Shown here: piece by piece, positions 2,189 through 33,389 of the stretch
Position numbering within the stretch: position 1 is the first letter of the stretch
Layout of the letters: each line of letters opens with the position of its first letter
Assembly (NCBI GenBank): GCA_030704615.1
Contig: CM060732.1
Span: forward strand, 37,262,001-37,326,000
DNA length: 64,000 nt
Origin: Takakia lepidozioides
Taxonomy: Eukaryota > Plantae > Bryophyta
Reading direction: 5' to 3'
Made by a program: the position numbers and the translations under genes
The notes under the pieces: generated by a model
What the model was told of the DNA's origin: nothing
What the model saw: the letters and a program-made list of their open reading frames with translations, nothing else
Database searches by the model: none

Positions 2189-2409
2189 AGATGTTTGTTT
2201 GTTTTTGCAATGCTAACAAGCCTGTGAGCTCCGCAAAACACTAAATAGATTGAAGGAACAATCCGGGCAGTCCATGCAACCCCCATCTCCAACGATAGTC
2301 TGTTCCCATAAATTTGCATCCCACGCACACATTGCAAACAGGACAACAGGGACACACAACCATCCCATTTCCAAATTGGCCCCGAATAAAAGCAAAAGAA
2401 AACTTCATA

Positions 2410-5400
2410 TTAAGTGTCACAGTCATCAGAATCAGTATCGACCTCATGTGCTATGTCATCCACAAAGATTCCGGCCCCAACACCACGTCTTCTACCACGA
2501 CCGTCGATTGTTGGACTGCGAGTGCCATGAACGGACATGCTTGTTGTGAGTGCCTCCGCATAGACAGGTAGCACGTAAGACTGAGGAGGACTTGAAAGAA
2601 GTCCAAAAAGGTGTGATAGCCCTGGAGAGTCAGTGGAAGCACGCGGACTCCTGCACAAGTCGACAAAACCCCATTTTGAACACAATGATGCAATGCACAA
2701 GTCCAACGAAGAGGATGTCTCCCATGTGCACTTCGCCTTAAGAACTGTGATTCTGGGTATTGAAACAACAATGCAAGCATCCACAGGTTGAACTTACTCA
2801 CAGACAAAGTCGGAGTCGAGCCTTGTCGGAAGTCTCCCCTATATCAATATCAGCGGGTAGGGGCTTCGGAAGGACTTGAGAAGTGTGTCCACCCAAACCC
2901 ATCAGGAGGTTCTTGTAAATCTCAACATCTCCTTCAATCCCAAAGAGATGTCGCGCACTGGCCTTGCAAGCATGGTACGAGGCACCTGCAGTGGAATACA
3001 ATGAAAGAAACAGACATTGAAGACACATTTGGAACGATCGGAAGAGCTGAAAGTGCAAGCTCAAACAAACCTCATGAAATATGAATGTTGAAGAGACGAA
3101 CTTGTGCCCATTGACAAATCCAGAACTCTAGCGTCTGTGTAGGTGCAGCACTCCACAATCGTCTGAATGAAAGTCGGGCTCCTCTCCTTGGCCCCTCTCC
3201 AAGGAACCCCATTCCCCCTTCGCAAGCACACGTTGCTGTCCATGTAGTTGTGGTGCATGTCATCCGTGGGAGGATCTGTCGTCTCGTCTATGAACTTGCC
3301 CCCATGAGTGATGGCGAACTCTCTAATGATGGCTGGAGTCGTAGGTGGATGCACTCGGACGAGACAAACAACTTCAAACAAACGAGTCTGCGAACATGAC
3401 ATACACAAGGAACTAAGAAGCTTGAAAACCAGGCCCCTACATATTCATTTGAGCGACTTCTGCAACTCCATCCGAAGAGGAATAAGAAGGCAGATTTACG
3501 ATCTCTCCGGGACGATCCCCCTTCATCAGGTACATGCTGTTAACACAATTTCATGTCTTCACGACCCTCATACCGGAGGCTTTCAAATAGCTGGCAAGTG
3601 CACGGCGACAGCGAAGGTCGATGGACTGGATGAACACCAAAACACCTGCATCGGATAGAAAGAAATTGCAAAAGGAGAAAATCCACCGCCAGTAACGCTC
3701 ATCAAAAGCATTCCAACCTGGACAAGCACCCGATGGAGGGACATCCGGGACTGACAACCCATCAGGGATGTCCAAGATGATGAGTTCGGCTGCATATGGC
3801 TTCTCCTTCCCGTTGACCCAGGATTTGGTCATTTTAGCCTGCAAACAAGCATGCAATGGAATGCTCAAGAGGATTGAAACGATCCATGCCCACAACAGAC
3901 AAGAAGCGAAAGACAACACGCACCGTGCCGAGGAACTCCACAATCCTCTCCCACACTAGTGATGGTTCGCCCTTGTTATCAGATTTCTTGGACTCCATCA
4001 TGGCAAGGAACCCGATGTTGGCCGTCTCCAACCTGGTAGGGCGAATGACCCTCGTGGGATGCTCCACTGCATGGTACGGGTCCTTGGGATCAACCACCCC
4101 CTTGTTCTTTCTCCCGGATTCCCTACCATGCGGTGGAGTTTGCTGGACATCCACCAGAGGGCCAGTATCTACAATACTTCCATGCCCACCTACCTGCCCT
4201 TGTGCCCCCTTCCCCCTACCCCTTCCTTTCCCTTTGCCTTTCTACCTTTACCCGGTGTATCCTGAGCGGGAGGCTCCTTCTCTGCAAGAGTCCTCAAATT
4301 TCTATTATAAATGTCGAGGTCGGCTGCTGCGGCGCTGGCTGCTATACGCTCATTCTCTCTCCTCAAAGACACCTCCTGAGCTGGGGTCTGCAGAGCAATC
4401 CAAATACCAACCACAAGCAGAAAGATGGTCTGGGCCCCAGTCATGCAAGATCCCCGTAGTAAACATGGTCTGGTTGCCAGCAGGGACAAGCCAAAGGTCC
4501 ACAAAATCAGGATGTTTGTCCAAGCAGTTCTCTGCCATGAGAACATACTTTATGTACCTGCAGGAATAGAGACAGCCTCATTATGCAATGCAAATATTGT
4601 CTCCCAGCTTTTCCACCCCATCACAAAGACCCCTTAAAAGAGTATGCGGAACAGTACACTCCACCACAAACTCATATGAGCCAGCCAAAAACAGGTTGGA
4701 TGGAGGAGAGTGTGTCTATGCAAAACAAAAGAAGCACAATCCATTTCGCACCTGTAGGCATCGTTTCCAGGCTTCCTCTCCTTTCTCTTGCTGGTCAAGC
4801 TCATTTGTTCGACTGATGCCAGCATCCTTGCTGAACTCTCTGAAGAAACAAGATTGCCACACTGTGGCTCTCCATTTCCTCATGTATGCTTGGAAGGAGA
4901 CCTTCGGTTCTGTCATGGTGATCCCATAGTTAGCCAGCTGCGTATGTAGAACTGACCGGGCCCTTTCCTCTAACTACAGACCAATACAAAAGCAAGAATG
5001 AACCCAAAAACAATCACAACCAATGTAACATGGAAAGAGAATGACAGAAAAAGCGAAAAGAAAGTGACACATCAAAGGACATCATACCTGGCTCCAGTAA
5101 GTGGCCTTGTGAAGCCATGTGTCCAGCACATTGTCACTGACAGGAATGACACGTTGGGTCTTCTTCTCTTTCTCCGGCCTGGGGAACATGTGGGTATCCC
5201 TAACAGTGGGATCGGAGTTCCATATCTGTAGCCACTTCACCTTCTGTTCTGAAGACCCAAGGGCAGTAGACAACCTGTGTAACTTCTCCTGGGCCATCTC
5301 CAGCTTGCCTGGCTTGTTGTAATGGTTTTTCACCTCTTGAAGGAACTATGCTCCGAAGGTTGGGTCTGCAATTCTCAGTTGTTTCACAAAAGCACTCATA

Positions 5401-8400
5401 ATAGTCCTTCTTGTGGCGGTCATCTCTTTCTGGATGTGACTCTCAACACCCTTTGCTGTCTTTCTCTCCTCAGGGGTAGAGCTGTAGTATTACAGTTTGT
5501 CACGCTCTCCTGCATCTACAATGTCTTGCTGCAAGGGAATGCACAAGAGTTGCATCAACCTAAGGGCAAGGGAAACAAACAGAAACAAACATATGGAAGC
5601 AGGAATATCGAAAGGCCAGATGATGGAAGATGTATCTCACCGCGTACATATACTCCATGAAAGCCTCACGGGTCAACGAGTACCACGTTTCTGATGTCTT
5701 GGAGCTTTCACACTTCTTGTACGTCTCTGCTGAAAGGATGGTCTTGAAGTTGGTCAAGGGCATCTGCCCGATCCTTTGTATCATGTACAGTGTGTGAAGC
5801 AGACTTGTTTTGACATGCGATGTCTCCGTCTCTCTGCAGAATGATGTGTGAAAGTCAAAATGAAATTCAAGGACCATCAACAGGGAACTGGAACCAAAGA
5901 ACCACGGAACCACAAGTGGAACATGTAGAATGAGAAACCAACCTGTTCATATCATTCATTGCCATCAGAAGACCCATCATGTCCCGTCACAATCCAACAC
6001 CATCGATCGAACAGAATAATGTCACTCTTCCTCCTATGAGTGCAGCCTCCCAATGACAGCCATCCATGCAAGCAACCGGTGGTTGCCATCCCAAACGTGA
6101 AACATCTTCCTGAGAATGCCTGGGTGGAAGGTTTCCTAGAGAGAAGAAGTTCGAAGGATTTGTTCACCTGTCTCCAAATGGGATCCCAGGAGTCCACGAT
6201 TGACTCATCCACAAGGAGCTCATTGCCTCTGGAATCCCTTGTAGAAACGTAAAAGACTACGGATCCATCCAAATACCCATGAACAAACTCGGCCTCCAGC
6301 TTCAGGATGTCCTTGATGAGGGGTGGACGAACGACGGGCATGGAAACCAACCTACACAGGGGAATCTTCAACCTCCCACCCGGGGCAAGCATACTTTGCA
6401 CCACAAGCTGAGAGTTTACCTTCTGACCACCCAGCATCTCAGCGGCTTTGTTTTCATAGAACTCATCGTCCACATCAACAATGATCTCCTTCCCCTGCCC
6501 CGAAGAGATCTCATCCGCCACACTTTGTATCTTCTCCTGCAGGGTTGTTCATTCAAATTGATATAAGAGAGAGGCATGAAACGATGGTGTTTTGAGCATG
6601 GCAGACAGGCCCTGTGTGGCCCAATTTCTCATCAGAAAACAAGCATTGTGGGGGCCGAAAACACTGTGCGTTGCCGCACAATGTTTCAGCTTCCAAATAG
6701 TGGTGTTTTGAACATGATATTTGGCCCTATGTGGCACATTTCCACAAAAAAAAACAAGCAGAGAGGGGGCGAAAAAGGGGGCAAAAACAGTGTGCGTTGC
6801 CGCACACTCTTCGTGCTTCCAACTGTGTGAGTTTTGAGCATGCATACTAGCCCTGTTTGGCCCAATTTCACATAGAAAAACAAGCATAGAGGGGGCTCAA
6901 AACAGTGTGCGTTGCCGCACACTATCTGAGCTTCCAATAAGGGTTGGATTCAACCTACCAGAGTGGCCCTAGGTGCCCGATTTTCACACCAAAAAACAAG
7001 CAGATAAGGGGGATCAAACAGTGTGCGTTGCCGCACACTATTTGAGCTTGCAATAAGGTGTGATTTTAACAAGGCACAGTGGCCATGAGTGGCCGATTTT
7101 GAAATAAAAGAAAAGGCAGTGAAGGGGGCTCAAACAGTGTGCGTTGGCGCACACTGTTTGAGCTTCCATTTCGGCGTGGATTCAACCTGCCAGATTGGCC
7201 CTAGGTGCACAATATTCATGTCCAAAAACAAGCAAATCAGGGGGCTCAAACAGTGGGGGCTCAAACATTGTGCGTTGACGCACACTATTTGAGCTGCCAG
7301 GTAAGTGTGCATTGAACCTCAAAGACATGCCCTATGTGGCCGATTTTCACATGAAAAAACAATGACAAGGTGGGCTCAAACAGTGTGCGTTGACGCATAC
7401 TGTTTGAGCTGCCAGGTAAGTGTGCATTGAAGCTGAAAGAGATGCCCTATGTGGCCGATTTTCACTTGAAAAAAACAATGACAAGGTGGGCTCAAACAGT
7501 GTGCGTTGACGCATACTGTTTGAGCTGCTAGGTAAGTGTGCATTGAACCTCAAAGACATGCCCTATGTGGCCGATTTTCACATGAAAAAAACAATGACAA
7601 GGTGGGCTCAAACAGTGTGCGTTGACGCACACTGTTTGAGCTGCCAGGTAAGTGTGCATTGAACCTCAAAGAGATGCCCTATGTGGCCGATTTTCAAATG
7701 AAAAAAACAACGACAAGGTGGGCTCAAACAGTGTGCGTTGACGCACACTGCTGGAGCTGCCAGGAAATTATTGATTGAACCTCATAGAGATACCCTGTCT
7801 GGACGATTTTATTGTGAAAAAAACAATGAGAATGGGGGCTCGAACAATGTGCGTTGGCGCACACTGTTGGAGCTTCGAAATAGGGGTGGATTGAACCGGA
7901 CAGAGAGGCCCATGTGTGCACCATTTCGACACCAAAAAACAAGGCATAAGGGGGGCTCAAATAGTGTGCGTTGATCCACACTGTTTGAGCTTCCAATTCG
8001 GGGTGGATTGAACCTGCCATAGTGGCCCTATGTGGCCGTTGGCACATCAAAAAACAAGCAAAATGGGGGGCTCAAACAATGTGCGTTGCCGCACACTGTT
8101 TGAGCTTCCAATTCGGGGTGGATTCAACCTGCCAGAGATGCCGTGTGTAGGCTATTTTCATATCAAAATACAAGCACAACTGGGGTTCACATCACCAATG
8201 AAGCACAAAGGTGGGTCTCAAACATTTTACCTTTTTTTTTTGCTGCTCCAGAAGACTCCCCAATCGCCAGATACCCTTTGCGCTTTGGACTGCTCTGTAC
8301 GCCGAGCATGTTGTGGAGCATCTCCCCCATCCCCTTTTCCACTATCTGGTTCTTCGTGAGTCCAGCATCAACATCATCTTCGGCGTCCGTCTCTCCCTCG

Positions 8401-8603
8401 GATGTAGTCTCCTCCTCACCTGTTCTTGGAAGTATGGCGGGCTGCTGTTCTTCTCCAGAATCCTGCTCTTCCATCGCCAGACTTTCCTCTTTGCCCTCTT
8501 CTTCCTTCTACTCTACTCTTTCCATCTCATTCTATCTCTGGCTCTATTCCTGTCCCTAGTGCTCGTGAAGTATAACGACTTCCTTCTCTTCCTCCTCCGG
8601 TGG
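2410..8603 (-). pseudogene. Element A multi-exon ParB-like + beta-class DNA amino-methyltransferase-fold gene (5' part continues at 23568-~23630)
   Basis: Acidic N-terminus (8231-8603), ParB-like exon (5952-6536; IPLCRLVSMPVVRP, and WDGNHR after a frameshift), middle exons, motif-IV-like LIILDIPDG (~3760-3786), KERSPTFIQTIVECCTYTDARVLDLSMGT (motif X/I, ~3102-3190) and ASYHACKASARHLFGIEGD (from 2985). Contains stops and frameshifts. Confidence 0.8.
6590..8170. repeat. Tandem array of ~13 x ~116-bp units, each with a 36-bp palindrome, inside an intron (6537-8230) of the element A ParB-MTase gene
   Basis: GCTCAAACAGTGTGCGT-TG-ACGCACACTGTTTGAGC has perfect arms at 7606-7641. Variants recur near 6658, 6785, 6900, 7015, 7131, 7262, 7377, 7494, 7725, 7842, 7958 and 8073. 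Confidence 0.95.
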
Positions 8604-8611
8604 AAACAAGG

Positions 8612-8720
8612 GAGGTTTACTATTTCATGAGCAGAAACCATGAGCCATGAGCCATGAGCCGCATGAGCCGCATGAGCGGTGAGCCGAAGTCTAAGATACG
8701 CGGATTTCATGAGCGGACTC
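8612..8720 (+). repeat. Left TIR and subterminal (C)CATGAGC repeats of element B
   Basis: TATTTCATGAGC..CCATGAGCCATGAGCCATGAGCCGCATGAGCCGCATGAGC; the inverted counterpart is at 23478-23559. Confidence 0.9.
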
Positions 8721-9462
8721 CTCCAAATTTGGAAATGCGGCAGATTAAACAAGTATTAAAATAATAGTTTTTTATTTGACCTTGCCGTTTTTGGACGTTC
8801 CAGATCATGTAATGCGGCGAAGATATGTCGTCAGTAACAAGTCCGCTCATGGTTTTTTAGATCCGCTCATGGAAATAAGTGACCGTGCAACGGGAAATCC
8901 AGTATACCACTGCAAAAGGACGTCGCATACTGGCCTGTATAGAGTATTCCGCGGTTTTACATGCCTTAACATTGGAATGAAGCTGACCCTTTTGCCGCGA
9001 TTGAACCAATGGAGTCTGCACCAATACAGTCTGCAGTACTTTCAACAATTCTGTCTTCTTCGGGTATTCGGCGGGAAAGGTTTGCAACTGAACTGGGAAA
9101 TAAGGTGCCGCATTAGGGTTCGCACGTGCGAAATTTCGGAGCGGTTTGGTGTTGGCGAAGGCCGCCTCTACCAGTACCTACGACGATACTTGGAAATGCG
9201 GCGCCGCATTTCCTTGTCGGAGGTCGAATGAGGAAAGCAAGTTTTCGGAAAGCAGAAAAACATGAACCCTCCAACATACAAAAATACATGCACGTGGAAA
9301 CAAGTGAACGATATAGTATATCTTAGTTCGAGCAAAACAGGTTACTGGTAGGCAAGACATATGTCGGACCTTTCTGTGGCCAGAGTCTGAGGTACTGGCA
9401 GCAGTACAGTTCTACTATCCGAAAAGGATGGGCGTACCATTGTATGGGACCGCAAGCCAAGC

Positions 9463-12400
9463 TCACTGGTCCCCTGGATCCATATTCAGAAGAGTGTGAA
9501 CCTCCTGGGGGGCTCAACCCTGGTGCATGTATGAAGTGATGAGTTGTGGAATTACAACGGAGTCTCTTTAGGTACACGTAGTACAAATGCTTGCAAGGGC
9601 AGTATGATGCCCCCTTGTTCGCCATGATCTGGAAGTCGGTGCAATTGCAGGTGGGTAATTCTGAAATGGTGATGGTGTACACCTCATTGCGAACAGCTGA
9701 GCCTGCCGTGGCCATCTGATACACACGCCCGAATCCTGGTGGGGCACTTCTGTCGAGCTCTGGATTGTACAGTTCATCCGAAGTGCATTCCCATCCTTGT
9801 CTCGTTCACTTTTGAGGGAGGTCGCCGCCTCTTCGGTTTCCCCCAACGGTGTGTAGGATGCTTAGAGCTGTCGTGTCCCATTGTTCTTGCTCTCACAGGG
9901 GTCGGTGGTGGAGGCTGTGGAAGCGGAAATGGTTGTCTGGGGACGTCAGTGCGCGCTGCACCATCCGAAATCCTGCGGCGGTAAGGGCGTCGGCCTCAAC
10001 CTGACTCAGATCGCAGCCTGGTTCCACCGGCCACACCGGGGGAGCCTCTGGCATTGTTTGTATGCCGTACTGGGCTTTCCATACACGCAAGTCATAATGT
10101 CGTGCCTGCAGAACCAGAACTGGGTGGTTGTCGCCTCCGCAAACTTTGCATGGACAAATCTTCCTGTAAAAGTAGGAGCAGGGACAGCCCCATCTGGATT
10201 CCTCCTTATCATCTCTAAACAACGTTGCCGTGTATCCACACGAATTGCGGAACACCTTCCTCGAAACGACGGCTTTGTGCGAGCAATTCTCCACTGTGAT
10301 GCAGACACAGTCGTCCACAATGGCTTGGCCATACTGCATAACAGCGGGCGGAATCTGGGGCAAGGGAGCGGTGGGAATTTTGCACGAAATCCCCGGTTGA
10401 AGGCGACGGCGATCTGGAATTTCTTGGGCTTCCACTGCTGGAAGACACATTGTGCGGCAACATGACGGGACCTCGAGGTGCTGTCCGAATGTTCCTGTCG
10501 GATCTCCAGGAATCCTCTTCGCACCCGGGTTCCTCTTCAATCCTCCGCCTGACAGGGCGAGTCCGGACGTCCCCTCTAGGTGTTCACCTCTGCGGTGCAG
10601 AGGCGTCCCTTTGATCTTCTCTCGCAATGCTGTCGCCCATTTCACTGGATTCTTGGACCTCGAAGCTGTTCGTACCAACAATTCCTCCCTGTCCGGCCCA
10701 AAGCCCCATTGTTTGCCGCTCAGGAACTTGTAGTACGTGGCTTGCTGCATGATTGCTCTGTCGATGTCCTCCGTTGTGGCCGTCACTACGTCCACCAGAT
10801 GTGCGGCAGAAGACGCTCGCCAGGAGGAGTGGACCGATTCTGCCATATTCGTGTTCGGCATGTCCGTGTCGGAATCCAAGCACCGCTCCTAGAAGGACAC
10901 AAACAATGGTGAGGGACCAATCGAAATGTCCGTAACAGAAAGACAAATGAACGAAAAATGACAGCAGCCTACCTCCCGCATGTACTGTCCGAACTGTCGA
11001 TACCGAAAATGCCACCACCCCAACCAGCTGTGCAATGCTCCCAGATTGGTTGTCTCCACTGCACCTGACGTGTTCCACCAAGCCTCGATGATAGCAAACT
11101 TAACCTCCGCGTCATCAAATGTGGGTGCATCCTTCCACGCCGTACAAAGGACACGGTGTTCAGCCTGGAATGAGCTAGCAACAAATTTGGTAGTGTAGTG
11201 GGATAGACTCTGCATCCAATGGAATCCACAGGATCTCTCTTTCCCTCCATTGGAACATTGGGGTCCTCACCGTACACACGCCGCACCGCTGCCCAGTTGG
11301 CCTGAGCGTTGTCTGCCATGAATCCCCTGAAATTGGGCTCTGGCAATCCCGCCCTTGCCATCTGCTCGTTTATGCCCTCCCACAGATGCATCTCGGACTG
11401 TGTGTCCTCCCCTTTCATCTCGCAGATTGCAATCGTCATGAGCCTCTTGGAGTGATAGTCATAAACATGCGCACCCATAGTCACCCACTGATGGTTTGTA
11501 ATTCGCTTGATGTGATCAAACATCACCCAAGCATTCGACAAGTTTCCAGTTGTCATGCGAGTGACCAAGTCGACTCCACTCCCAGGCCCACACGTCGACA
11601 TTTTGAAAATGTAACAACGATCGGATTCGCTGCCTTGCCCTGGAAAAACCTGCTACCTTGGATGTAGTCATATCCAGTCATTCGTTTCACCTCCAGGATT
11701 GAGTACATGTCCGACCCCCTGCCGAACTCCTGCTTGCAAGATACGATGTGATTCCGCACATTCGGACTACAAACGTGCGAGACGGACTCCAAGAGGTCAC
11801 GCATCTCGTCTTCGTCAAGGGCTCTCGGTCGGAACCATCTTCAGACATGATTTTGCCAAGAGCAATCTTGTGGGCTGCCTTCAGCTGAATCTGCTTTGGT
11901 CTGGCTCCGGGGCTCAATTTCACCTCCTCTTTTATGATGTCGTGTGCTTCCTGCACAGCCTCACGCATGTTGCCTCTCGCCAAGGGGTGGCAGTGGACCC
12001 CAACGTGTATGCAAGCTCTAGTCAAGTCCGGGAGCAAATGGATTACGTAATATTGCTTGGCTCTGCACATGGACATGCACGTCGGTGGTTCTTTGCAATG
12101 TGCACACTTGAAAGAACCCGCAGGAGCTTGGCTGGAGACAATGAATGGATGATGCGTTGTGCCAGTCCAATCCGTCTCGTTTCTCCGCCCTCCTTTGGAG
12201 AGAAAGTGGAAGCAGGGGATTGAGGCACCTCAGCTTCCCCGCACAGAGGACATATCGTACACGAACACCATCAGCAATTTTCGTGCTACTGGTCTTCGTC
12301 ACACACCAGGGTGTCCGTCATGCTTTCGATCCATGTCTGTTAACATCCGGAGGCTTTGTTTGACGAAGAAACAGGTGGAAACTCGAAGATGACATTGCCA

Positions 12401-13062
12401 TCGACTTCGGGAGGCAGAAACGTTACCTTTCTGACTGGGAATTTGGCATAGTCGAGAGCAGCCAGCTCGGAGCGAGAACCATCGAGGTGATGTTGTCGTA
12501 GGAGCTGCACAATGGACCGGGTTGGAGTTATGCTCGAGGGCACATGCGTAGCACCTACAGAGACGTCCATGCCGGATTTGAACGACCGTGTGGAGGACAT
12601 GGGTACCTCAATGCAATCATCTTCCTCGTCGGAAATGTCGAATACGTCCACACGAGAAGCTATGGAGGGTCTTGACGGTCCAGGTCGGGAATGATTATCG
12701 TTGCATACCTCTCTGTTGGCAGTGGCCGCCTGTCGGTTTCCGGACTCCTTTGTGGATGGTGTGGGCAGCGACTGATTCGGAAAGGGAATGGGCATTCCCA
12801 CAGCTCGGTACAGGATGGTGTCTGACGGGGGAACGTGCCATTCGATTCCGCAACCTCCGTCGTTACCTAGCACGACAATGGTCTCGTCAACCTGTCCAGG
12901 AACATCCTTCCTTTCTTCTTCCAAATAAACTGTGCCCGGTTTGAGCTTGAATTTGGAACAAAGGTAAGTTTCAGTCACTCTGCAAAGTCCTCCCTCGTTT
13001 GGGATCCAGGCTCTCCCAAGTTGCGGAGGACAGCAAACTATAGCGTAGGAATTCGGAGCCAT
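9463..13062 (-). pseudogene. Element B MULE-type DDE transposase with GCM-like N-terminal domain and C-terminal SWIM finger (frameshifted as assembled)
   Basis: WVMFDHIKR (D1), FMADNAQAN (D2), TNMAESVHSSW (E); SWIM CNCTDF..CPCKHLYYV; N-terminal CAGKLRCLN..CRAKQY..CIHVGVHCHP. One intron at ~10873-10970. Confidence 0.85.
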
Positions 13063-13469
13063 CGAACACCGCACGAGTTGGCAAGTGCGAGGTTCAGTAT
13101 AGCGACAGACCAAGGCTCACAGGCACCATGCGGAGTCCATCGACGATTGGAAGTCGCACATTGAAGTGGAAAGTATTGTTTCAAGCTACATGCATGAAGG
13201 TGGAGGTTTGATTCCATAGCCAGTAAGTATGACAATGATGGCCGATTCGGCGACGAAATAACATCTCTGACAGTTTCTCCTGAGGGTGGATCCAGCAGTA
13301 TTCTCGGTGCAGACAGGAACGTTCGCACTGACAAGTGCCAGGACTTAGTTAAAACGGTCAGACCAAGTTGTGCTCATCAAGACTGGCCGCAATTGTGTTG
13401 TTTCGGAACAATGCAACCCATTGAGGTTCCAGATTTCCCGTCCCGAGTGATTCTTTCGATTGCTGGTGG

Positions 13470-14900
13470 ACGGAAATACGGCGCCGCATTTCCGTATTGC
13501 ATCTTGGTCATGCACCAGAGCGACGGAAATGCGGCACCGAGTTTCCGTCCGGGGAACCTTTATACTCTCCAGAACGGAAATGCGGTAACGCATTTCCATC
13601 CAGCAAGCACCATGGAACGTGGAACGGAAAGTACCGCATTTCCGTTCTGATTGAGAATTATGAACAACGGGAACAGAAATGCGGCACCGCATTTCCGTCC
13701 GAGTCGCACTTTCCGACATTCCTTTTGAGTCTCCAGAACGGAAATGCACGCATTTTCCAACAAGCACGGTATGTGAAGGTGGAACGGAAATGCGGTACCG
13801 CATTTCCGTTCTGATTGAGAATTATGAACAACGGGAACAGAAATGCGGCACCGCATTTCCGTCCGAGTCGCACTTTTCGACATTCCAGAACGGAAATGCG
13901 GCGCCGCATTTCCATTTTGTATCTGATTGGAGCCGGTTCCGACCGCTTGCGCAATTCCGACCAGACATTCATCCAGAACGGAAATGCGGTACCGCATTTC
14001 CGTTCTGACTGAAAATCGTGAACCATCGGAACTGAAATGCGGCAGCGCATTTCCATCCGAGTCGCACCTCCCAACATTCCAGAACGAAATGCGGCACCGC
14101 ATTTCCGTTCTGATGAAAAATGAAACATCGGAACTGAAATGCGGTACCGCATTTCCGTCGGAGTCGCACCTTCCGACATTCCAAAACGGAAATGCGGCGC
14201 CGCATTTCCGTTTTGTATGTGAGGCATGGAGCTGTGGAACGAAAATGCGGCACCGCATTTCCGCCAGCGTCAGACCTTAATACTCTACAGAACGGAAATG
14301 CGGTACCGCATTTCCGTTCTGACTGAAAATCGTGCGCAACGGGAACAGAAATGCGGCACCGCATTTCCGTCCGAGTCGCACCTTCCGACATTCTCGAACG
14401 GAAATGCGGCGCCGCATTTCCGTTTTGTATGCCTGGAACGGAAATGCCGCATTTCCATCCATGTGAGACCTTCAAACTTTCCAGACGGAAATGCGGCACC
14501 GCATTTCTGTCCAGGTGAGACCTCTATACTTTCCGAACGGAAATGTGGCACGGCATTTTTTCATCAACAGGGAACGGAAAACCGCATTTCCGTTCACATT
14601 GAAAATCATGAACCACGGGAACTGAAATTTGTGCCTTCCGTCCGAATCGCACCTTTCGACATTCCAGAACGGAAATGCGGCGCCGCATTTCCCTTTGTAT
14701 CTCATACATGGAGCTGTGGGACGGAAATGCGGCACCGTATTTCCGTTCAACAACTAAGGTATGTGAAGGTGGAACGGAAATGCGGTGCCGCATTTTCTTC
14801 CAACAAGTACGGATGTGTAGCTTCGTGATGGTACTTAACGGAAATGCGGCGCCGCATTCGCATTTTCACTCCAACTCATCAGACGCTGGGACGGAAATGC
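13470..14900. repeat. Array of ~25-30 copies (~52-bp spacing) of the palindrome GGAAATGCGG-NN-CCGCATTTCC between the two divergent genes of element B
   Basis: A perfect 22-mer at 13892-13913 and a perfect 34-bp palindrome at 14182-14215. The linkers fall into a few recurring types. Confidence 0.95.
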
Positions 14901-15204
14901 CTTGAAATGTGAACACGTGGAGCAACGGAATTGGCACATGTCGGCACTCTATCTGACTGAAGGGCATGAGGCGGCGCGGCCTGACCGTTGGATAATGATG
15001 TTTGTTTTTCGGACGGCAGGCGTACCTGAACGATTCGAATTTCGTAATGACGCAAACTCCACGAGGAGACACTTTTCGTCCAACCCTTTCGAACCCAAGT
15101 GGTGCATCACCGCCGTTTCATCTACTTTTGTCGTGTCTCCTCAGTCACCCCTCTCGCGCCCTTTCCATCTGCACTCTTTGCCCCTTTTCCCTCTCTCTGT
15201 TCTT

Positions 15205-18200
15205 ATGCTCGAACCTGAGAGGGGGGGAGTTCGTGCACCAGACAGGAGACCTCGTCGCAAGCTCCGAAAATTATACTTCGGACGTAGGCCAATGCCGAAG
15301 GGGAGGAAGCAGATGCGTCTACAGGAGGAGATTGCCATCTCCGAGCAGCAGGCCACTCAGGCAACCCAGCCACCAGTGAGAGCTCCATGCGATCGGGGCT
15401 GCGCGCAGCTGATCGAGCACCGAACCCCCCATTTTGCTTCTGTAATTCTTACTGAATGCTAGGAGACTTGAATGCAGAACATGTTTGCATGCCTAACAGG
15501 AAAGGTGGACGTGCTGGAGGGATCGCAGGAATCCGAAGAGCCGCAGGAAGAGTCCGAGGAGCTAGCTGCAGCACGTACACCCACCCGATCCCCGAGCGCG
15601 GGTATTCCTGCCGGGCCTAGCCCTGTGCGATTCAAAGACGCGTCTTCGAAGGGCAAGTTCAAAGCCCAGAGATCGACTCGCGTTTCGGTCATGGAGAATC
15701 GCCAGCAGGGGTCGGGCCCTTCTCCAGCAAAGTCGAAGAAGAAGCAGCCCGTCCCTCTACTGGCTTCTGAACCGGCTCAGGCCGATTCACCCCCCAACGC
15801 GAATGAAGCAGGAAGACAGATTCAATTGCAGCAGACACCTTCACCTGCAAGGATGAGGAAGCAGAAGGCAATCAGGGCGACGGCCGAACAATCTCCCGCA
15901 AAACCGCTTCCACGAGCTGAAGCTCAGTTCCTGGAGGATTTCCCGCCTGCAGATGTTGGGGCCGACTCTGCTGCAGCGAAAGGCAATGGGATCGACCGTT
16001 GATCTCGATTTGGTACCGGAGGAGGGTGCTGCCGCTGAACGTTCGGCAGACCTCACCACCGATGAGCAAGCAGGCCCGGAGGAGGCCTCTGCAATGGCAG
16101 AATTGCCCGCACACAGGCCCCAGAGTGCAGCTCCAGTTGAGGATGCTCCAGCTGCTCAGCCACTACCGGCACCTACAGACATGTCTCCGGAGGATTTCAA
16201 AAGTGCAGCGGATAAAATGTTGGAGGAGACACACAGTAGCATTGGCAGAGTTCTGGGCAGCAGGGTATTCCAGCGGACTCTTCGAATCCCACTCTGTCGC
16301 ATGGTCTCCCTTCCCATCGTCAGGCAGGCCCTTCCCGGAGATGTGGATAAGCTCAAGTTCGCATTTCGAGAAGGGTACCGTCTGGGATCGGCAGCGTTTT
16401 ACGTTTCCATTGAGAATGAGGACGGCGAAACTCGTGGACCCACTGCCGATGAATTGTCAACGTGGGATACCCACTGGCACACTCGCAACCACGAATTCGA
16501 GGCGACGCAATCCGACTTCGGCCATATGTCGGGTAAAATGTTCTTTGTGTGGGACGGGAATCACCGACTTCTCGCCTGGTGGGAGTACATCAAGCAGAAC
16601 CATGCCAAGCACATTGGCTGGCATTACATGGTGGAGTGTGTCATCCTCAAGGTGAAGGCGGCAGACTCCTCCCTCAAGAATGCCATGGCGGACCTCAACT
16701 CGTAAGATACTCATACCCTCCCTAGCACGTTCGAAATGCGGTGCCGCATTTCGGTTTCCATTCTGGTTTGTTTCCGTGCTTCCGTGTACTGAACTGGAGA
16801 GTGTGCCTTGCAGGGTCACTGAGAATGCGTACGTGCATACCCACATGGCACATATGCTGTACAGGGTGAGGAAAACTGGTCTCACTGATCCGCAGATGTT
16901 TGCGGAAATGCTGGAGCCCGAGCTCATTCAGAAAGCCGTTGCAAAAACAGACCGGACATGGTATCGTCTCACTATGGATGGAATGGTGGAGGTGATATAC
17001 GAAGTAAGTCGTCCTCCAATTTCCCTCTGCTCATCCTTCCCCAATTTCCAGTAATCTTTCCACATGAATCGAATGTAACGCTTCTGCATGTTTTTGTTGG
17101 CAGTCAAACATCAAGCTGGATTTGGCCCATGCCAAACGCTTCTTCATGGAAAGTGAGGGGCAGGTCAAAACGTTGCAGTCATTGACTGAGCACTTGAAGG
17201 AAGCCGGTGTCAAGTCCAGAACCAAATACAAGTCAAAGCTTGTGAAGCTGGTGGCAATTGCAGATCGGCACTTGGAAAGGACTTCATCCCCGAGATTGCA
17301 AAACACTATTCTCGGGCCATGCAGCCGACCATGCAATTGGAGAAACTGCATCACCTCTCAACGGCATGTGTGGAGGCGAAAGAGAAGGTGAGGTTTCAAT
17401 GCACTGAAGTTCCTTCCTAGCAATAGCCACTCTCTTCCACTGACATTGGATCGGAAATGGCAGACACGGTGGCTGTCGATCTGGAATGCATCCGAGAGCA
17501 TAAGGACAATGTGGTCTTTTCCACTGGAAGTTTCCGACCCTGCAGTGGATGTGTGGCTCAACCGCATGACTTGGTGGTTCCAGGTAATTCAAGGTACTTC
17601 CCCAGATTTGCTTTTCTGACATGAATTCCCTGAACTGCTACGTGACAATGCATTTGGGAATCGCAGGTAATGTCGAATGCGAAGGAGCAAGTCGTAATGC
17701 ACACAAATTCGTTCGGCTTGTACGTCAAATGGGATGGAACACAGACATTGGAAGACTACGTGACACGTTTCAGATGTGCGTACAAGGACAACCTTTTCGC
17801 CAGAGCTACAGACAGCAAGAAGGAGCGTGGAGTTTACACATCAGGAGGGAGCGGGGAAAGCTGCAATGCGAATTGTTTACAGGTGAAGCACAGCTGCCCT
17901 TGTATGCGAAGCCTGGTTACGAGGTTTGTCTCGGAAATGCGGCACCGCATTCGCATTTTATGTTTTCGGTGGCACTCTGCCAGTAGGTTGGTCTCAATTT
18001 TGCTCACGCATGCTGACTGCCTTGCAGGTATATGAAATACGTGCTCCTTCAGACAGGGGCCCTGGCTCAAGAGCCCCCGTTCTTCATGGCTTGGACCGTG
18101 GCGGGCCCAAGCTGTGTCTACACACCCGAGATGCAGAAACAATGGCATCCCGCGCATCTCGTTGGATGCCCGTGGTACCTGGATGTCTGGCGGTTGTTGA

Positions 18201-20331
18201 CGAGTCTGAGAAAAGATCTGCACGCCTTGGCAGAAGAGAAGAGAAAGGAAAGACGTGTCCCTGCTGGCCAAAGTCGGCAAAGGATCTGCTGCTCTGGAAG
18301 AATCAGAAAGGCAGCTGAGATGGCACAAAAGAGGTGGATGCAGCTGTGCAGGCCCAACAGAAGGGGTCGAAGAAGAGGACTCGCCAGCAAGGAGCAGCTG
18401 TTGTGACCCCGCCAAAACGAAGAAGCAGAAAAACAGCTGTTCAGGAAGAGGGTGACGAAGAGGACTCCGATGGAGATTTGCAACCAGCCACCCCAAACGC
18501 AGGCTGCCTCCCTGTCCTACAGTTGTCACGAGAGGCACGAGAACTGGCTCGGCAAAGAAAGCATCTTCAACCCCCAGGGGCGCACCCTTTGAGCCGGTGG
18601 AAATGAGGAGGCGAAGTGGCTCCCGAAACAGTAGTCCAGTGTGTAAATGAGAGTTTCTTGGCGCTTTGTGATGGACGGGCAGCCAAGTTGGCATACATGA
18701 AGACCATGGAGGGTCTGAAGGGCAGAGCACTGAAGAAGGCGACTGCCGAAGAGCCTTCCGACACCCCAGGATTTCAGGAATATGGTCTCGTTCTTTGTGA
18801 GGGTGTGTGCAGACAAGGATTGTAGGAGGGGCGGAATGCCACCCGAGGTGGTCTTGCGATATGATCATCTTGGATATTCCGGACGGAGAGCCTGTGGAAG
18901 GACTGCAAGCTTTGCCCATCTTGGAACAGGAAGGTACTCGGAGGACTTTTGGAAGAAAGGATTCGGGCTTGCCCGCATGGTGTTGGACGACAGAAGGCTG
19001 TGTGGTTGTCTTGGCGAGCAGAGGAAAAAACACTCAGACAGGAATTGCGAAGTGGACCCGCAAGAGCGCCGTCCGATGCATCAACACACGGGCTTCGGTC
19101 GGAAGGAAGAAGGTGATTACGACAATGGCACTCGTCCATTGTTTGCTTGGGGGTTTTCAAATGCGGGCCGCATTCGGTTCTAATCGTTCCCCCCTGTGTA
19201 TGCAGACGAAGCAGTTCGATGCATACTGCTTTGTGAAGGAGAACTCCACCTTTGCTTCCGGAAGGAGGGAGGAAAGGTGACCCGAATGCACCCCCGATTA
19301 CGACGTTCTGTCAACAACGTTCCCAAGGAACTTCCCCTCATAGCCTCACTCAACGGAACCCCTGCGGTACTCACGGACTCGGAGCCCTGCCTTCATTCAG
19401 ACAATTATGGGGACATGCAACAGACGTGGAGGGCCAGTGCTGGACCTCATCTGTGGGACGGGTATGAAGAATCTTGATCTATGCTGTTCTGAAATTTCTC
19501 GTTATGATGTAGTTCGCACATCTGAAGCGCCATTTGTAATGTGTGGATGGCATTGTAACAGGTGCCTCAAATGTGGGCTGGGCGGTTTCCGACCGGCACC
19601 TCTTGCCTACGGGAGGATTCATCCGTGTGGGGATCCCATCGGGAAGGCTGCAACGGAATGTTAAGGCTCCCAACAGAGCGGAAGTCTCCTCGGATTCGTC
19701 GGAGTCCGAGGAAGACACAGTGAACATGATGCGGAGGAGAACCCGGAATACGAGAGTGAGTGCAAACATTGTAAGTTTGCAAAAGCTTCTGGGTCATTTT
19801 TATCAAACGAATTTCCGGACTGTGGTTCTCATTAGTCTCGTTGTGATGATTGTCATGTGCAGGATTACAGGGTCCGGGTCGAAATATGTAGGGCCTACAC
19901 TTCCTGTAGGAAGAATGTCCCGTTCTTTGCGAAGGCCGACTTTCATGACGAGCCCGGTGAGGGACTACTCCCTTCCTAGTTATGCAGCTAAACTCGCAAA
20001 TACAGCGATTAGAAGAAGTGAGAATCCAGTAAAGTAGAGCAGATTTTGGAGGGGGGCTAGGAGGACAGAAGGATAAGGAAAGAGTTGGCAGCAGCTCAGA
20101 CAGGTAGACGGGTACGAAAGTACATATGTGATTCAGCGGATGAGAGCGACGCAGACAGGGCGGAAGACGACCCAAACGGAGGTGAGATGGACAGTTCCGC
20201 AAGGGGAAGATGGGATTTTTGAAAGCCAAGCCAACGAGCAGTCCGCTGGAGATGAGAAAGGCAATGAGGGGGTGGAGGCGGAGCAGGATAGTCTAGAACA
20301 GGATGAGGATTCGGATGATTTTCAAGATTAA
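15205..20331 (+). pseudogene. Element B multi-exon ParB-like + beta-class DNA amino-methyltransferase-fold gene (frameshifted as assembled; start approximate)
   Basis: Low-complexity N-terminus; IPLCRMVSLPIVRQ..MFFVWDGNHRLLAW (16280-16580); middle exons homologous to A (RWLSIWN/KWLQIWN; WHPAHLVGCPWYLD/WGPDHLSACGWYLD); DMIILDIPDG (~18858-18887); RSPAFIQTIMGTCNRRGGPVLDLICGTG (19380-19461); intron 19462-19561; GASNVGWAVSDRHL; acidic tail. Confidence 0.8.
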
Positions 20332-20464
20332 TAGAATTTTAATGAAGTCTCTGTAAATGTAAATTCTCTTCCAGAGTATATAAAGGAAATTCTCCCCGAC
20401 ATTCGTGACCCCTCTCCAGTGTGCATTCCAGCCACACAATCGCCCAAACCACGACGCTCCCAAA

Positions 20465-21190
20465 ATCAGAAATGGGGCACCGCATTTCCAAAATTTTGGC
20501 AACTCTAAAAACCTCTTTTGGAAATGCGGCACCGCATTTCCAAAACAGGGGAGGGACTAAATTTTCCATTTCAATGTTGGCATAGTAAAAAGTAATCGGC
20601 CGATTGGAAATTCGGTGCCGCATTTCCAAAATTTCCTTTGTCCACACGCCAGTTTAGGCCTCTCCCGCTCATTTCATGGATGCCACCACGCTTACAGAGG
20701 TCGAACAAGGAGGTCGAGATGGCGGAATTGGAAATGCGGTGCCGCATTTCCATATTGGGGATGGTCGTTGTTCGAACTGCAGGCCCATCAGCAAAAATTG
20801 GCACCGCATTCCATTGTCAAAAAAAAGTCGATGACGGACATGGAAATGCGGCGCCGCATTTCCAGAACGGACATCGCAATTTGTCCATTTGCAGACCCTC
20901 TACGGAAATGCGGCAACGCATTCCATCGCGCTGGTCGGAAAGTCACACTTTCCGAAGTGTTTGGACGGAAATGCGGCACCACATTCCCTTGTCAAAAAGA
21001 AGTTTCCATTGCCAAGCTGGAAATGCGTCGCCGCATTTGCAATGCCAACCTCGTTGTCTGTCCAATTTATAGACCCGTGTTGGTATTTCGTGTACCTGGA
21101 CGGAAATGATGCACCGCATTCCATTGTCCGACACTGAAATGCGGTTCATACATTTCCATGTCGGCATTGGAATGCGGCACCGCATTTCCT
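20465..21190. repeat. Second cluster (~12 degenerate copies) of the element B palindrome, downstream of the ParB-MTase gene
   Basis: GGAAATGCGGCACCGCATTTCC and variants near 20520, 20606, 20729, 20842, 20904, 20967, 21019, 21102 and 21170. Confidence 0.92.
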
Positions 21191-21417
21191 TGTCCGACAT
21201 GGCGTTACTCTGGTATATTCTTGACACATGACTCTCATACCGGTTACTCTGGTATATTCATCCGGACACACAAATTGTAGAAATGAGACGTCAAATTGTA
21301 AACAGTGGGCCAATTCCGACAGTTATTCAACAGAATGAAACACAATCACACAGAAGTGAGGTACGATGGGTTTATTGATCGGACACGATGTCTCACATTT
21401 ACCAACTGCAGACAAAA

Positions 21418-22064
21418 CTAAGCCCTTCCTCCTTCTACATGGGCTTCACCAAGTCGACGGAACTTCGATACCCTCAAAACAAGCTCATTACTGCTGCGGC
21501 ACCTCGAGGTAAACTGCAATTTGGTCATTCTGCTGCCCTTGCTGGAGCCGACGACAATGTCATGTCCATCAATGATACCACCATCATACATTGACAAGGT
21601 CACTGTGGGCCTCATGTGCCCGTGCGATTCATCTTCGCAACTCAGCCAAATGTCTCCATACACTGGAAGAGCGGAGTGATCTGCACGTGTATAGTTTTCC
21701 CCGGTGCTGTCCTCCCTGGTCCACTGGCAGAGCGCCAAAGCGAGGCCGTGCGTGATCTGTCCGGCATCCTATTCCAGCTTGGTATATCGAGGTCAACAAT
21801 TTTCAGGACCCACGGACCGCATTGACCCTCGCCCTCACCTCGCTCAAAGCGGTAATAGCCCTCCAGATACTCCATTGCGCGCAAAGACTCTTGCTTGATT
21901 CCAGCAGCGTCTGTGAAAACAGAGAGCCAGACAATGATGTCTCCTGATTCTGGTTTGAACATAGCATAATCGTGGCCATGATAAGGGCAGTCGGCTGGAG
22001 TATGCTGGAAAAAGAGTAGCGGAGTACGCTCAATGACAGCAGCTCCCGGATGGAGGAGGAGCAC
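21418..22064 (-). pseudogene. Unknown cargo protein, paralog 1 (one frameshift near 21740)
   Basis: DCPYHGHDYAMFKPESGDIIVW..EYLEGYYRFERG..PWVLKIVDLDIPSW..PVYGDI..YDGGIIDGHDIVV aligns with ORF 22387-23049. Confidence 0.75.
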
Positions 22065-22386
22065 CGCGGTGGCTGGAAAAGTTCAAGCTAACGCTGCAAT
22101 TCCTCACAAACACTCCAGGGCACATTTAAATTTCCCCCCTACAGGATCCTGGACCGATGAAGATTGGCTGCTGCATGAATGTAGTCGTTTCAGTTTCCTA
22201 CCCTGCCATGCAAACTATGGGCAGTCACTGCCAGGTGGGCCGATAGCCACTGGACACGACGAAGTCCATCCCCTCTTCGATGTAAATGCGGCGCCGAATT
22301 TCCATCCGGGGGGATGGACTTCGGTGGCAGATCTCAAACTATAACTTGTTGATGAGAAAGATGTATGGGTTCATCCACCTTCGTCG

Positions 22387-23049
22387 GTGGGTACGTGGGA
22401 CCCAGATGCTCCATTATTGGAGGCCGGACTGCTCTTCCGCTTCGCATCATTTCCAAAATCTAAGGGCTTCGTAGCTGTCCGCAAGGTCATTGTCATCGGC
22501 ATCCAAGTCGTCCTCAGGTCCTCCTTTGCAAGGATGCCGTGCTTCCGGAACCGGGACGACTGCCCATTTGGAGGCATCGATTATGCAATGTATTCGGCCA
22601 CATCGGGAGACATTGTTATCTGGTACACAGATTACAGAGAAGATACTGGTTCGATTGTGGGAACATTGGTGGCTTTTGAGTATATCCTAGGCCACTACGC
22701 CTTTGAGCGGGGTGACGATCTTGGTCTGAGGAGTCCGTGGCTCCTGTGCATCCTCGATTCCGATTTTCCCAGCTACGACGGTCACCCATGCAGAAGAAGG
22801 CGCACTGCTATGCTGTTGCGGTGGAACTGCTGCCACTGGACGTGGGTGGACTCCATCGGAGAGACCTATTCTCCTGAAGGAGTGCGCTCCTCTTCTCCAT
22901 TGTATGGGGACATTCGCATTGGTGTGGATGACGAAAACGTGAAGATTTCCATATTCGATGGTGGTATGATTGAAGGGCAGGACATTGTGGTGAACATCAC
23001 TAGGGGCGGTACAACGGCTGCAATCGACTTTACCTGGAGAAGCCCATGA
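22387..23049 (+). CDS. Unknown cargo protein, paralog 2 (true start probably ~22535)
   Basis: Open frame DCPFGGIDYAMYSATSGDIVIW..EYILGHYAFERG..PWLLCILDSDFPSY..PLYGDI..FDGGMIEGQDIVV, homologous to the divergent neighbour. Confidence 0.75.
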   Translation: MGTWDPDAPLLEAGLLFRFASFPKSKGFVAVRKVIVIGIQVVLRSSFARMPCFRNRDDCPFGGIDYAMYSATSGDIVIWYTDYREDTGSIVGTLVAFEYILGHYAFERGDDLGLRSPWLLCILDSDFPSYDGHPCRRRRTAMLLRWNCCHWTWVDSIGETYSPEGVRSSSPLYGDIRIGVDDENVKISIFDGGMIEGQDIVVNITRGGTTAAIDFTWRSP

Positions 23050-23477
23050 CTCATGAGCTAGTTCTGAGAGCAGTCGGAGTCCCATTGACAACGTGACTTG
23101 TATTCAGTAGGCACAGGGCTAAAGATTTGATTGCACAATCAGCACAGTAGACGTGCTTCAAATGCAATTCATGTGGATCAATAAAAACCTCATTGTGCCC
23201 TCTTTTTATTCTATTCTGTGTCCATCGTTCCGAGAATGCGTCATTGCTCATTTCGTTTGGGATTGGGAGTGTGGGTGGATTTTGCAAGTGGCTGGTAGGC
23301 TGAAATGGGCCCCCATTGTACAGAGCAGTACCACCCTTCCATTCGCGAAACATTGCCTTTCAATATATAATTCTAAATAACATTGCCGAACCTCCTTCAT
23401 CGGGAGGTCCTTCTCCCCCTATGACTGTGGCACCCTAAACCCTATTCCCGCGGACACTCATTTCCGGAAAATAGTGC

Positions 23478-23559
23478 TGCTCATGTTTTTTTCCACACTT
23501 ACGACTCTGCTCATGGCTCATGCCGCTCATGGCTCATGGCTCATGAAATAGCAGCCCCC
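23478..23559 (-). repeat. Right TIR and subterminal GCTCATG repeats of element B
   Basis: GCTCATGGCTCATGCCGCTCATGGCTCATGGCTCATGAAATAGCAGCCCCC. Confidence 0.9.
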
Positions 23560-26500: not shown

Positions 26501-27194
26501 AATTTCACTTTGCATCGTGCCTGTTCATTTGGGGTTGTTGGATTGTCACTTACAGAACCTCTTCCATTTCCTTTCGTTCCTCACATTTCCATGCGATGCC
26601 TCCTGCAAGACATGTCATTGGAGGACTTGGCCGACATGCCATCCTGTAATTTGGCGGAGACTATTCACAACGCCTGGATGCAGCAGTCTACCAAAGCAGG
26701 ACGTGACTTGTATGTGGCCACTGCTGATGACATGGTGCAGGCACTTACACAACAAACCAGGTACCGCAATTTTCTTATAGGACGGGTTGGAGGCAAGGGC
26801 CCTGATACAACTTTGTTGATGCTAAGGGCTGCGAGTAGGTCCGGAGACCCATCGAAGATGGCCAGAGCTTTGAACAGGTGCATTGAAGGCTCCCCTTTGC
26901 AATCCAGACTCCCCCAAGGAAAAGGAAGGCGAGGAAAGATTTGGATCATGCAAAAGGAAATTGAACACTCCTCCAGGGTCGGATGGAGATTCCCATCGGC
27001 CGGACAGGGTCAATTTCTCTGTACCAAAGGTGTCTCTAGTGCAGACTAAGTCGTGTGCCCGCCCCTTCCTAGGTGGGTCCTCCTCTAGTGGAGCAGGTGC
27101 AGATCATGCAAGCACGGCAGCAGGAATCCCATTGGAGGAGGTGGTGGCCATGGTGCATGAATCTGATTGCATTGATAGTGAGTGGCATATAGAA

Positions 27195-27901
27195 CGCACC
27201 TCCCTTCGATAAGCTCCCCTTCACGTCATAGTTACTCGCTTTGATGCGCGCGCCTGACTCCCAACCTGGCCGCCGGGCCAACTTGGAGCTTCGGCTGCTC
27301 ACCGGGACATAACGGTCCCCCCTTCGCTTCTCCCAAAGAACCCTCCACCGATTTGGAACCAACGGGAATTCCCTTTGGTAGTTGGCAGTCCGGAACAACT
27401 CCCCACTCTTTGGTCGCTTTCCGGCTCGCTCGCTTACTCGCTAGTTTTTGGTCATCAACGGGCTTGCACCGTTCTCGAGGTTACTACTCCCTATATATAC
27501 TTCTGTAGCTGTCCGTGGGGGTTTCACAACCAGCCATGCCATTTTATGGCGAACCACCATGAAGACCCTCGATTCCCGGTGGTGAGTCGCGGTGAGTCTT
27601 GGCCCACTCACCGCGGCCCCAATGGACCGTGATGAGTCCCAAGACTCCCCACGACTCCCACCTCGAGGTCTCCACCCCATGGTGAGTCCTATGTCACCCC
27701 CACTAAGTCCCGCTAAGCTACCACCACCCCTTGTGGAGCCACCCCCACCGCAACCCGATGTGCGGGGCTCCACCTAGTGAGCGCATCCGCCTCCTTGAGT
27801 GCCTTGGGCACTCAAGGGTGCTTCAGCCCCCGTACCTATCGCTACTACTGCCCCCACCACAGGGGCAGCCCCTCTTGTGTCCCGACCCCCCCCTGTCCTC
27901 A
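27195..27901 (-). repeat. 3' LTR, clipped at both ends
   Basis: Near-identical to 33395-~34085. Lacks the first 5 bp (TGTCG) and the last ~18 bp; no adjacent polypurine tract. Confidence 0.92.
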
Positions 27902-33334: not shown

Positions 33335-33389
33335 GATGAGGCCAATCCCAAGGACGATCGCGTACTGAACTCTAAGCTCTGATACCAAG

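Follow-up and report, generated by a model that had tools for sequence, protein, structure and literature searches.

The question raised by this locus of Takakia lepidozioides is what reads a short palindrome that recurs many times within a single DNA transposon, and for what purpose. The window, i.e., the whole 64-kb stretch of DNA that was analyzed, is plant DNA, with a starch-synthase domain near 60 kb and a Ty3 retroelement at 27.2-34.1 kb. According to the original prediction, an array of palindromes in the shared promoter region of the transposon, here called element B, would be a series of sites for a dimeric protein, placed on one face of the DNA. The data presented below make it fairly probable that the 22-bp palindromes are cognate sites for the ParB-fold protein that the element itself encodes, which would bind them in a self-regulatory role.

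With up to 3 mismatches, the palindrome GGAAATGCGG-NN-CCGCATTTCC has 34 matches in the window, against none in each of 100 shuffled versions of it. All 34 lie within element B and none in the remaining 49 kb of the window. The predicted array is real and comprises 21 palindromes at 13472..14861 (array 1; 22 palindromes at 4 mismatches), with a 53-bp unit and higher-order linker types. A second cluster, which the earlier description had not included, consists of 9 palindromes at 20468..21189 (array 2; 10 at 4 mismatches), with mostly unrelated linkers and whole-turn spacings. The four remaining sites are single copies, all of them noticed before near 9192, 16733, 17933, and 22284. One is found downstream of the transposase gene (9192..9213), another between two divergent paralogous ORFs (22282..22303), and two in GT..AG introns of the ParB-fold gene, namely the intron following the ParB exon (site 16732..16753, intron 16703-16813) and a later one (site 17933..17954, intron 17883-18027).

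That the arms are conserved and the linkers divergent was borne out by the frequency of the commonest base, which over the 21 units of array 1 is 0.96 for the arms, 0.78 for the 4 adjoining bases, and 0.50 for the linkers, and in array 2 is 0.93, 0.50, and 0.47, respectively. The single sites, whose flanks are unrelated, still have arms conserved at 0.93. Three arm mismatches of the window copy, at 20612, 20981, and 21170, have the consensus base in contigs of other samples, and the center of one array 2 site differs between the two sources (CA/TA). The central dinucleotide, on the other hand, is not free as had been supposed, since it is pyrimidine-purine in 34/34 sites (CA 15, CG 10, TA 5, TG 4); in array 1 it tends to go with the linker type of the higher-order repeat. 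CpG decay, a symmetrizing template switch, and a preference of the binding protein fit the data of element B alike, while the centers of two related arrays, in locus L017 (TA, TG, and CA, no CG) and in the older element A (TG in 13/13 copies), favor a protein preference. This type of center is not universal, as L006 has CT, TT, and AA, and L003 has GA. The CpGs of the arms have become TG/CA in only 1/68 cases; given that the linker CpGs of array 1 are also mostly intact (16/18), this low decay is partly a matter of youth. Youth alone can likewise explain the high observed/expected CpG ratio of element B (0.85, vs. 0.46 in the host part of the window).

Element B is a 14,948-bp transposon at 8612..23559, delimited by an 8-bp direct repeat, AAACAAGG, present as the left (8604..8611) and right (23560..23567) target-site duplications, inside which its termini match at 16/20 bases in inverted register. 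The left end (8612..8715, plus strand) combines this short imperfect inverted repeat with CATGAGC subterminal repeats, of which the right end (23479..23559, minus strand) carries the mirror set; these repeats are the likely sites of the transposase. Contigs of other samples span all of element B, with a depth that goes up at both ends. Between one such contig of 3,370 bp and the window there are 6 substitutions and 20 gap letters, and many of the frameshifts in element B must therefore be peculiar to the window copy or its assembly.

The transposase gene runs on the minus strand from 13116 to approximately 9326 and, frameshifts in the window copy aside, encodes a Zn-finger-like N-terminal part, a DDE-like core, and a C-terminal SWIM domain, the match to the latter being weak (E 0.017-0.024, short of the cut-off). 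The spacing of its D-D-CxxH-E motif, read by eye, is what we take to be Mutator-type. Its architecture corresponds to that given in PMC1702500, and the 8-bp target duplication and G-rich termini of element B are features of Mutator-like transposons, for which duplications of 8-11 bp are reported (bioRxiv 10.64898/2026.08.24.746577). The Pfam scan of the transposase gave no MULE match, the PDB sequence search yielded nothing useful, and the nearest Atlas clusters were hAT-type RNase H clusters at 0.85-0.86, to be taken as a lead only. The assignment of element B to the Mutator superfamily is therefore likely from its sequence features, but not proven. Two further ORFs, at 22345..23049 (plus strand) and 21502..22082 (minus strand), are 40-45% identical paralogs with no informative match in Pfam, PHROG, or NCBIfam. 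Among the scanned ORFs of element B, none matched a ParA family, and two had no family match. A CRISPR-like reading of the array was rejected in view of the eukaryotic context, the recurrence of linkers as a higher-order repeat, and the lack of any cas family among the scanned ORFs.

The candidate reader is the product of a multi-exon accessory gene at 15290..19463 (plus strand, start approximate), which is arranged head to head with the transposase gene and has frameshifts in the window copy. It encodes, in order, a disordered N-terminal part, a ParB/sulfiredoxin (Srx)-type domain with a DGNHR motif (16229..16702, plus strand), a helical region, and an amino-methyltransferase-like domain. The model of the 158-residue ParB exon product has a pLDDT of 78.6. 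All 34 Foldseek matches listed for it are chains of the ParB/Srx superfamily by title, including sulfiredoxin, PadC, Noc, ParB, KorB, SerK, SbnI, and their kin, none of them with E <0.001. Similarly, 12 of the 13 VIA-align matches listed belong to this superfamily by title, with middling scores that all stay below Z 8 (Z 7.1 for SerK, with an rmsd of 2.9 over 88 aligned residues, 7.0 for KorB, and 6.8 for PadC), and the Atlas also places the exon product near ParB/sulfiredoxin clusters. The front domain of the accessory protein is thus predicted, on the basis of its structural model, to have a ParB/sulfiredoxin-type fold. The DGNHR motif fits the GxxR signature (Box II), with GNHR nearly invariant in alignment A1 and DGNHR invariant in alignment A2. 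Within the superfamily, this motif is similar to that of the sulfiredoxin/SerK side, and the bound nucleotide may therefore not be CTP.

The Pfam scan of the ParB-fold N-terminal domain gave no match, and the PDB sequence search with the ParB profile gave nothing useful. The profile search retrieved 1,068 clusters (50% identity) at E <=0.001; ten were looked up, and the 6 that are named come from the liverwort Riccia sorocarpa and two ferns of the genus Adiantum. A Riccia homolog of 1,207 residues has the same domain layout, with a C-terminal PF01555 match (E 5e-5) that is slightly under the curated cut-off; Riccia homologs are also matched by PHROG methyltransferase families. In the model of a Riccia homolog, the region after the ParB domain is all-helical (pLDDT 77.8); fold searches with it returned generic helical matches and no clear helix-turn-helix, the best Z being 5.3 and a single winged-helix match reaching 4.2. 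No relatives were found in viral contigs.

How the sites multiplied and what keeps their arms can be considered together, since the strongest rival to a protein reader is that the palindrome is a self-amplifying minisatellite, spread by hairpin-driven template switching and unequal crossing-over. Array 1 is indeed a tandem repeat. Its intervals (22 sites, <=4 mismatches) are exactly 53 bp in 10/21 cases and 50-53 bp in 15/21, so that the predicted spacing of approximately 51-55 bp was right in its regularity but not in its range, no interval being of 54-55 bp. Its linkers fall into few recurring types (11/55 pairs alike), and array 1 must therefore have grown by tandem duplication with higher-order structure. 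Two of its neighboring gaps together measure 210 bp, of which approximately 157 bp are skipped in some copies seen in contigs of other samples, leaving 53. The four centers observed are also exactly those that symmetrizing or inverting a CA center would produce, and sites with self-complementary centers have fewer core mismatches (0.60 vs. 1.37) and longer perfect arms, so that some repair by template switching is conceivable.

Several observations nevertheless speak against a palindrome without a reader. Only 1/34 changed arm pairs is compensated, and the flanks pair no better than with shuffled partners, either in array 1 (p 0.16) or at the remaining 13 sites (p 0.21); the p of 0.0006 obtained by pooling reflects the mixture of the two groups. 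It is therefore the sequence that is kept, and not a hairpin. The single sites hold the same arms between unrelated flanks, as described above, and the center in element A remains asymmetric in every copy. A further argument is provided by array 2, whose sites keep whole-turn spacings although most of its linkers are unrelated (4/36 pairs alike). In the contig of run X7, the spacings of 52, 84, 137, 113, 63, 63, 53, and 83 bp give a mean cosine of 0.85 at 10.5 bp (p 5e-5), with p 0.003 if the period is left free between 8 and 13, and p 0.001 for the six distinct spacing values alone. The phase is also detected in run X5 (p 0.005) and in the window copy (p 0.014 at 10.5 bp), from which the 1,300-bp X7 contig is set apart by seven listed indels, these making up all of its 20 gap letters. 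Taken together, these data make the minisatellite explanation unlikely.

The helical phase has its limits. In array 1, the long gaps of 87-132 bp (n=6) are out of phase in 5/6 cases, and no common phase was found along the whole array (p 0.86). The proposal that the sites occupy one face of the DNA is thus supported for the non-tandem array 2, but the phase is local and, in the window copy, is not kept along array 1 as a whole. Across families, nine array periods gave p 0.006 at 10.5 bp, rising to 0.04 when the period was left free, in a test for which the periods were picked after they had been seen; without the two arrays of the window, these values become 0.04 and 0.28, respectively.

The position of array 1 bears on which protein might use it. 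It does lie between two divergent genes, as a shared promoter would, but its promoter nature is doubtful, because the corresponding arrays of element A and L017 are in intron 1. A candidate 5'-UTR intron, with candidate donor and acceptor, surrounds array 1 at 13223..15144 (plus strand): 13223 is the sole GT(A/G)AG donor in 13050-13480, and 15144 the sole pyrimidine-rich acceptor in 14900-15330. This donor leaves only approximately 110 bp to the transposase frame. Array 1 may therefore belong to a first intron, that of the ParB-fold gene, instead of a promoter.

Element A (2200-8611 and 23568-35400) is an older relative, into which element B has inserted, and the transposase of which is interrupted by the Ty3 retroelement. 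No left end could be located for it, whereas GCTCACG repeats similar to those of element B mark its right end, and its ParB-fold gene and transposase are also head to head. The homologous ParB-fold/methyltransferase-like gene of element A (3094..6548, minus strand) is 41-53% identical to that of element B in the ParB part, and its first intron contains 13 copies of a different palindrome in a 116-bp unit (6655..8105). The transposase at 24446-34918 was at first sight a separate, array-less element; this candidate was rejected, as the gene is element A's own, element B being inserted in A, and it therefore does not help to decide which protein uses the sites.

Among 23 related metagenome loci, 14 were usable after exclusion of the near-duplicates L007, L010, L014, and L019 and of those with <440 bp upstream (L001, L002, L004, L015, and L016). 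Six of the 14 have a palindrome array within the homologous gene or just upstream of it, with periods of 127 bp (L003), 106 bp (L005, one and a half copies at the contig end), 33 bp (L006), approximately 85 bp (L008 and L011), and 105 and 182 bp (L017, within the ParB-fold gene's intron 1). In the other 8/14, all with enough upstream DNA, no palindrome array was found near the gene; stops interrupt the ParB exon in 7 of these 8 array-less loci, but also in the array-bearing L008 and L011. In the table of motifs by elements, all matches except three stray single ones fall on the diagonal. Sister proteins have related palindromes, as for L003/L005 (support 98/95) and L008/L011 (in a tree using 17/25 rows), and a CG-N-NN-N-CG core is common to the palindromes of A, B, L003, L005, and L017. 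Other palindromes were noticed in these loci. A 29-bp perfect palindrome, with a small second one 128 bp downstream, occurs in L009 (7930-7958) and in L010 (6811-6839 and 11601-11629), where it flanks the ParB exon on either side and is perhaps a small inserted element or the site of that family. Three AT-rich palindromes, spaced by 94 and 72 bp, are found in L018 (4075-4263), 5.8 kb upstream of a ParB exon that has decayed; they were not counted as an array.

The prediction of sites for a dimeric protein is thus supported in part, though not as to the free center: the arms are kept independently of the flanks, each palindrome is confined to its own element, the spacings of array 2 are whole turns, and a ParB-fold candidate adjoins. 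This protein is the best candidate because the arrays lie in or before its gene, because the palindromes change with it, and because ParB proteins read palindromes (PMC12704722). A transposase is also encoded by both element A and element B, so that the sites cannot be attributed to a single protein from the window alone, and the Zn-finger part of the transposase might bind them for synapsis or autoregulation. The transposase gene does adjoin array 1 on its other side, and Mutator transposases can activate their own copies, according to the same report in which an Arabidopsis Mutator transposase binds terminal repeats (bioRxiv 10.64898/2026.08.24.746577). Element B, however, has a separate terminal motif, which is near-identical at the right end of element A despite their different internal palindromes. 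Together with the location of the arrays in or just before the ParB-fold gene, this leads us to prefer the ParB-fold protein and to regard recognition by the transposase as quite unlikely.

Recognition might also be catalytic, if the palindromes were the targets of an active element-encoded N4-cytosine/N6-adenine methyltransferase that marks its own copies, with the ParB fold as an accessory nucleotide-binding module. The window gene has the beta-type order of motifs, the equivalent of the SAM-binding motif I (19437..19463, plus strand) coming after that of motif IV (18873..18884, plus strand). ParB-N6_N4 fusions are described as common in phages (PMC12704722), and a methyltransferase role has been proposed for an Ectocarpus protein (PMC12477816). 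The canonical motif IV of the beta class, however, is DPPY/SPPY (PMC8885841), and the domain of element B departs from the catalytic motif (D/S/N)PP(Y/F/W), as DIPD stands in its place in the genes of both A and B. The catalytic aromatic residue is also missing in 15 of the 16 motif matches found among 311 proteins (DLPS 10, DLPT 4, DIPT 1, DVPF 1). The PDB sequence search with the methyltransferase piece gave nothing useful. Furthermore, a methyltransferase would not need 22-bp phased sites, and an active enzyme of this kind is very unlikely to be the reason for the palindromes. As for captured sites of a host transcription factor that drives the element's genes, the position of array 1 between two divergent genes would suit them, but the palindrome differs per family and none of these palindromes is present in the 22 kb of non-element window DNA, so that such an origin is highly improbable.

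Accessory proteins of a similar kind have recently been described in algae. In red-algal Plavaka (EnSpm/CACTA), Mutator, and Zisupton elements, Petroll et al. report an accessory gene, PAG3, with adjacent inverted-repeat arrays, and propose self-binding and self-modification (bioRxiv 10.1101/2025.02.11.637652). As in element B, the setting is a giant DNA transposon with an N-terminally ParB-like accessory protein and tandem inverted-repeat arrays next to its gene. In contrast, the C-terminus of PAG3 is a 2OG-oxygenase, with the N6-MTase encoded separately by PAG2, whereas the ParB fold and the methyltransferase-like domain are here in one gene, in a Mutator-like element of a land plant; neither a motif nor family specificity nor helical phasing is described in the accessible text of that preprint. 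The accessory protein of Sola1-1_Ec32 of Ectocarpus has both a ParB-like and an N4C/N6A methyltransferase domain (PMC12477816), also in one protein of approximately 1,100 aa encoded on the strand opposite to the transposase. It differs by its Sola transposase and brown-algal host, the likeness noted here is one of domain layout, and the available part of the article mentions no arrays and does not discuss the catalytic motif. Element B shows the features of this kind of element, namely a ParB-like accessory gene in a DNA transposon, inverted-repeat arrays alongside, and a C-terminal domain of N6/N4 methyltransferase type. With algal ParB-accessory transposons in print, the kind is therefore already known, and the land-plant system with phased palindromes is a variant of it, the design having been published for red and brown algae. 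The literature search found no land-plant case, family-specific palindrome code, or helical phasing; subscription journals and bioRxiv supplements were outside its reach and could hold one.

Two other systems invite comparison. In Arabidopsis VANDAL elements, the family-specific motifs linked to VANC accumulate by tandem duplication in introns, between genes, and in terminal non-coding parts (PMC5735166). Here too an accessory gene on a Mutator-like element goes with family-specific tandem motif arrays in non-coding parts, but VANC motifs are non-palindromic and 8-9 bp long, and the effect of VANC has been shown experimentally, whereas that of the accessory protein of element B is inferred. 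The Pfam scan of window pieces and long homologs gave nothing but PF01555, and no family that marks VANC. Bacterial ParB/parS and KorB and the phage ParB-N6_N4 methyltransferase fusions (PMC12704722; PMC4738411) share with element B the ParB/Srx fold with GxxR, clustered palindromes near the gene, and, for the phages, the fusion that is typical of them; ParB-linked methylases have also been noted in chlorophytes and phages by Iyer et al. (PMC4738411). Unlike ParB/parS, the gene of element B is eukaryotic and intron-containing, with no ParA-like gene recognized and no clear helix-turn-helix.

If the ParB-fold protein is the reader, the following mechanism can be envisioned. A two-fold symmetric dimer would read both arms and would need a bendable pyrimidine-purine step at the center. 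Neighboring sites in phase would let dimers docked on one DNA face cooperate or bridge, and the nucleotide-binding ParB fold might gate loading or spreading, as in ParB and KorB. The methyltransferase-like domain, devoid of the catalytic aromatic residue, could act as a DNA reader or shield, or be an atypical enzyme. The sites would multiply by tandem duplication of 53-bp units, with selection on the arms and the phase to maintain them. By analogy with VANC, the outcome would be family-specific self-regulation, of which protection from silencing by host methylation is the most likely form and autorepression of the KorB type an alternative. A bolder proposal, possible but on balance doubtful, is that seed-free land plants host a large and diversified transposon family that runs a bacterial-style ParB/parS machine on itself, in which a nucleotide-gated dimer loads cooperatively on phased, family-specific palindromes and spreads or bridges, while a disarmed methyltransferase domain occludes host cytosine methylation.

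Were this bolder proposal correct, the co-divergence of protein and palindrome would supply naturally occurring orthogonal protein-site pairs, and these elements would embody another solution, unrelated to VANC, to the problem of anti-silencing. The window offers putative pairs for two nested families, with more from the related loci, and the spacing rule predicts cooperative binding. With such pairs, the shared core, and this rule, family-specific escape from silencing becomes testable by swapping proteins, sites, and spacers. As the protein family is large and its N-terminal domain has no Pfam match, it may, without having been noticed, be shaping the genomes of many seed-free plants.

A third palindrome family, AACCTCCACTG-NN-CAGTGGAGGTT, occurs in the window at 1954, 35961, 38008, 38342, 39750, and 41623. 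It is dispersed over a DUF7869-bearing element at approximately 35.9-41.7 kb and is found once beside a ParB-like motif, IDGQHT (minus strand, near 2050); it is probably a more distant system on another transposon superfamily. The Ty3 element, a chromodomain retroelement at 27195-34075, has LTR pieces that are 96-97% identical, and an inverted solo-LTR-like copy lies at 42927-43641. Around this solo LTR, at 42347-44630, degenerate AACCCT-like repeats resemble interstitial telomere-type sequence. Finally, two 424-bp tandem copies at 61204-62055 are 99% identical, possibly as an assembly duplication.
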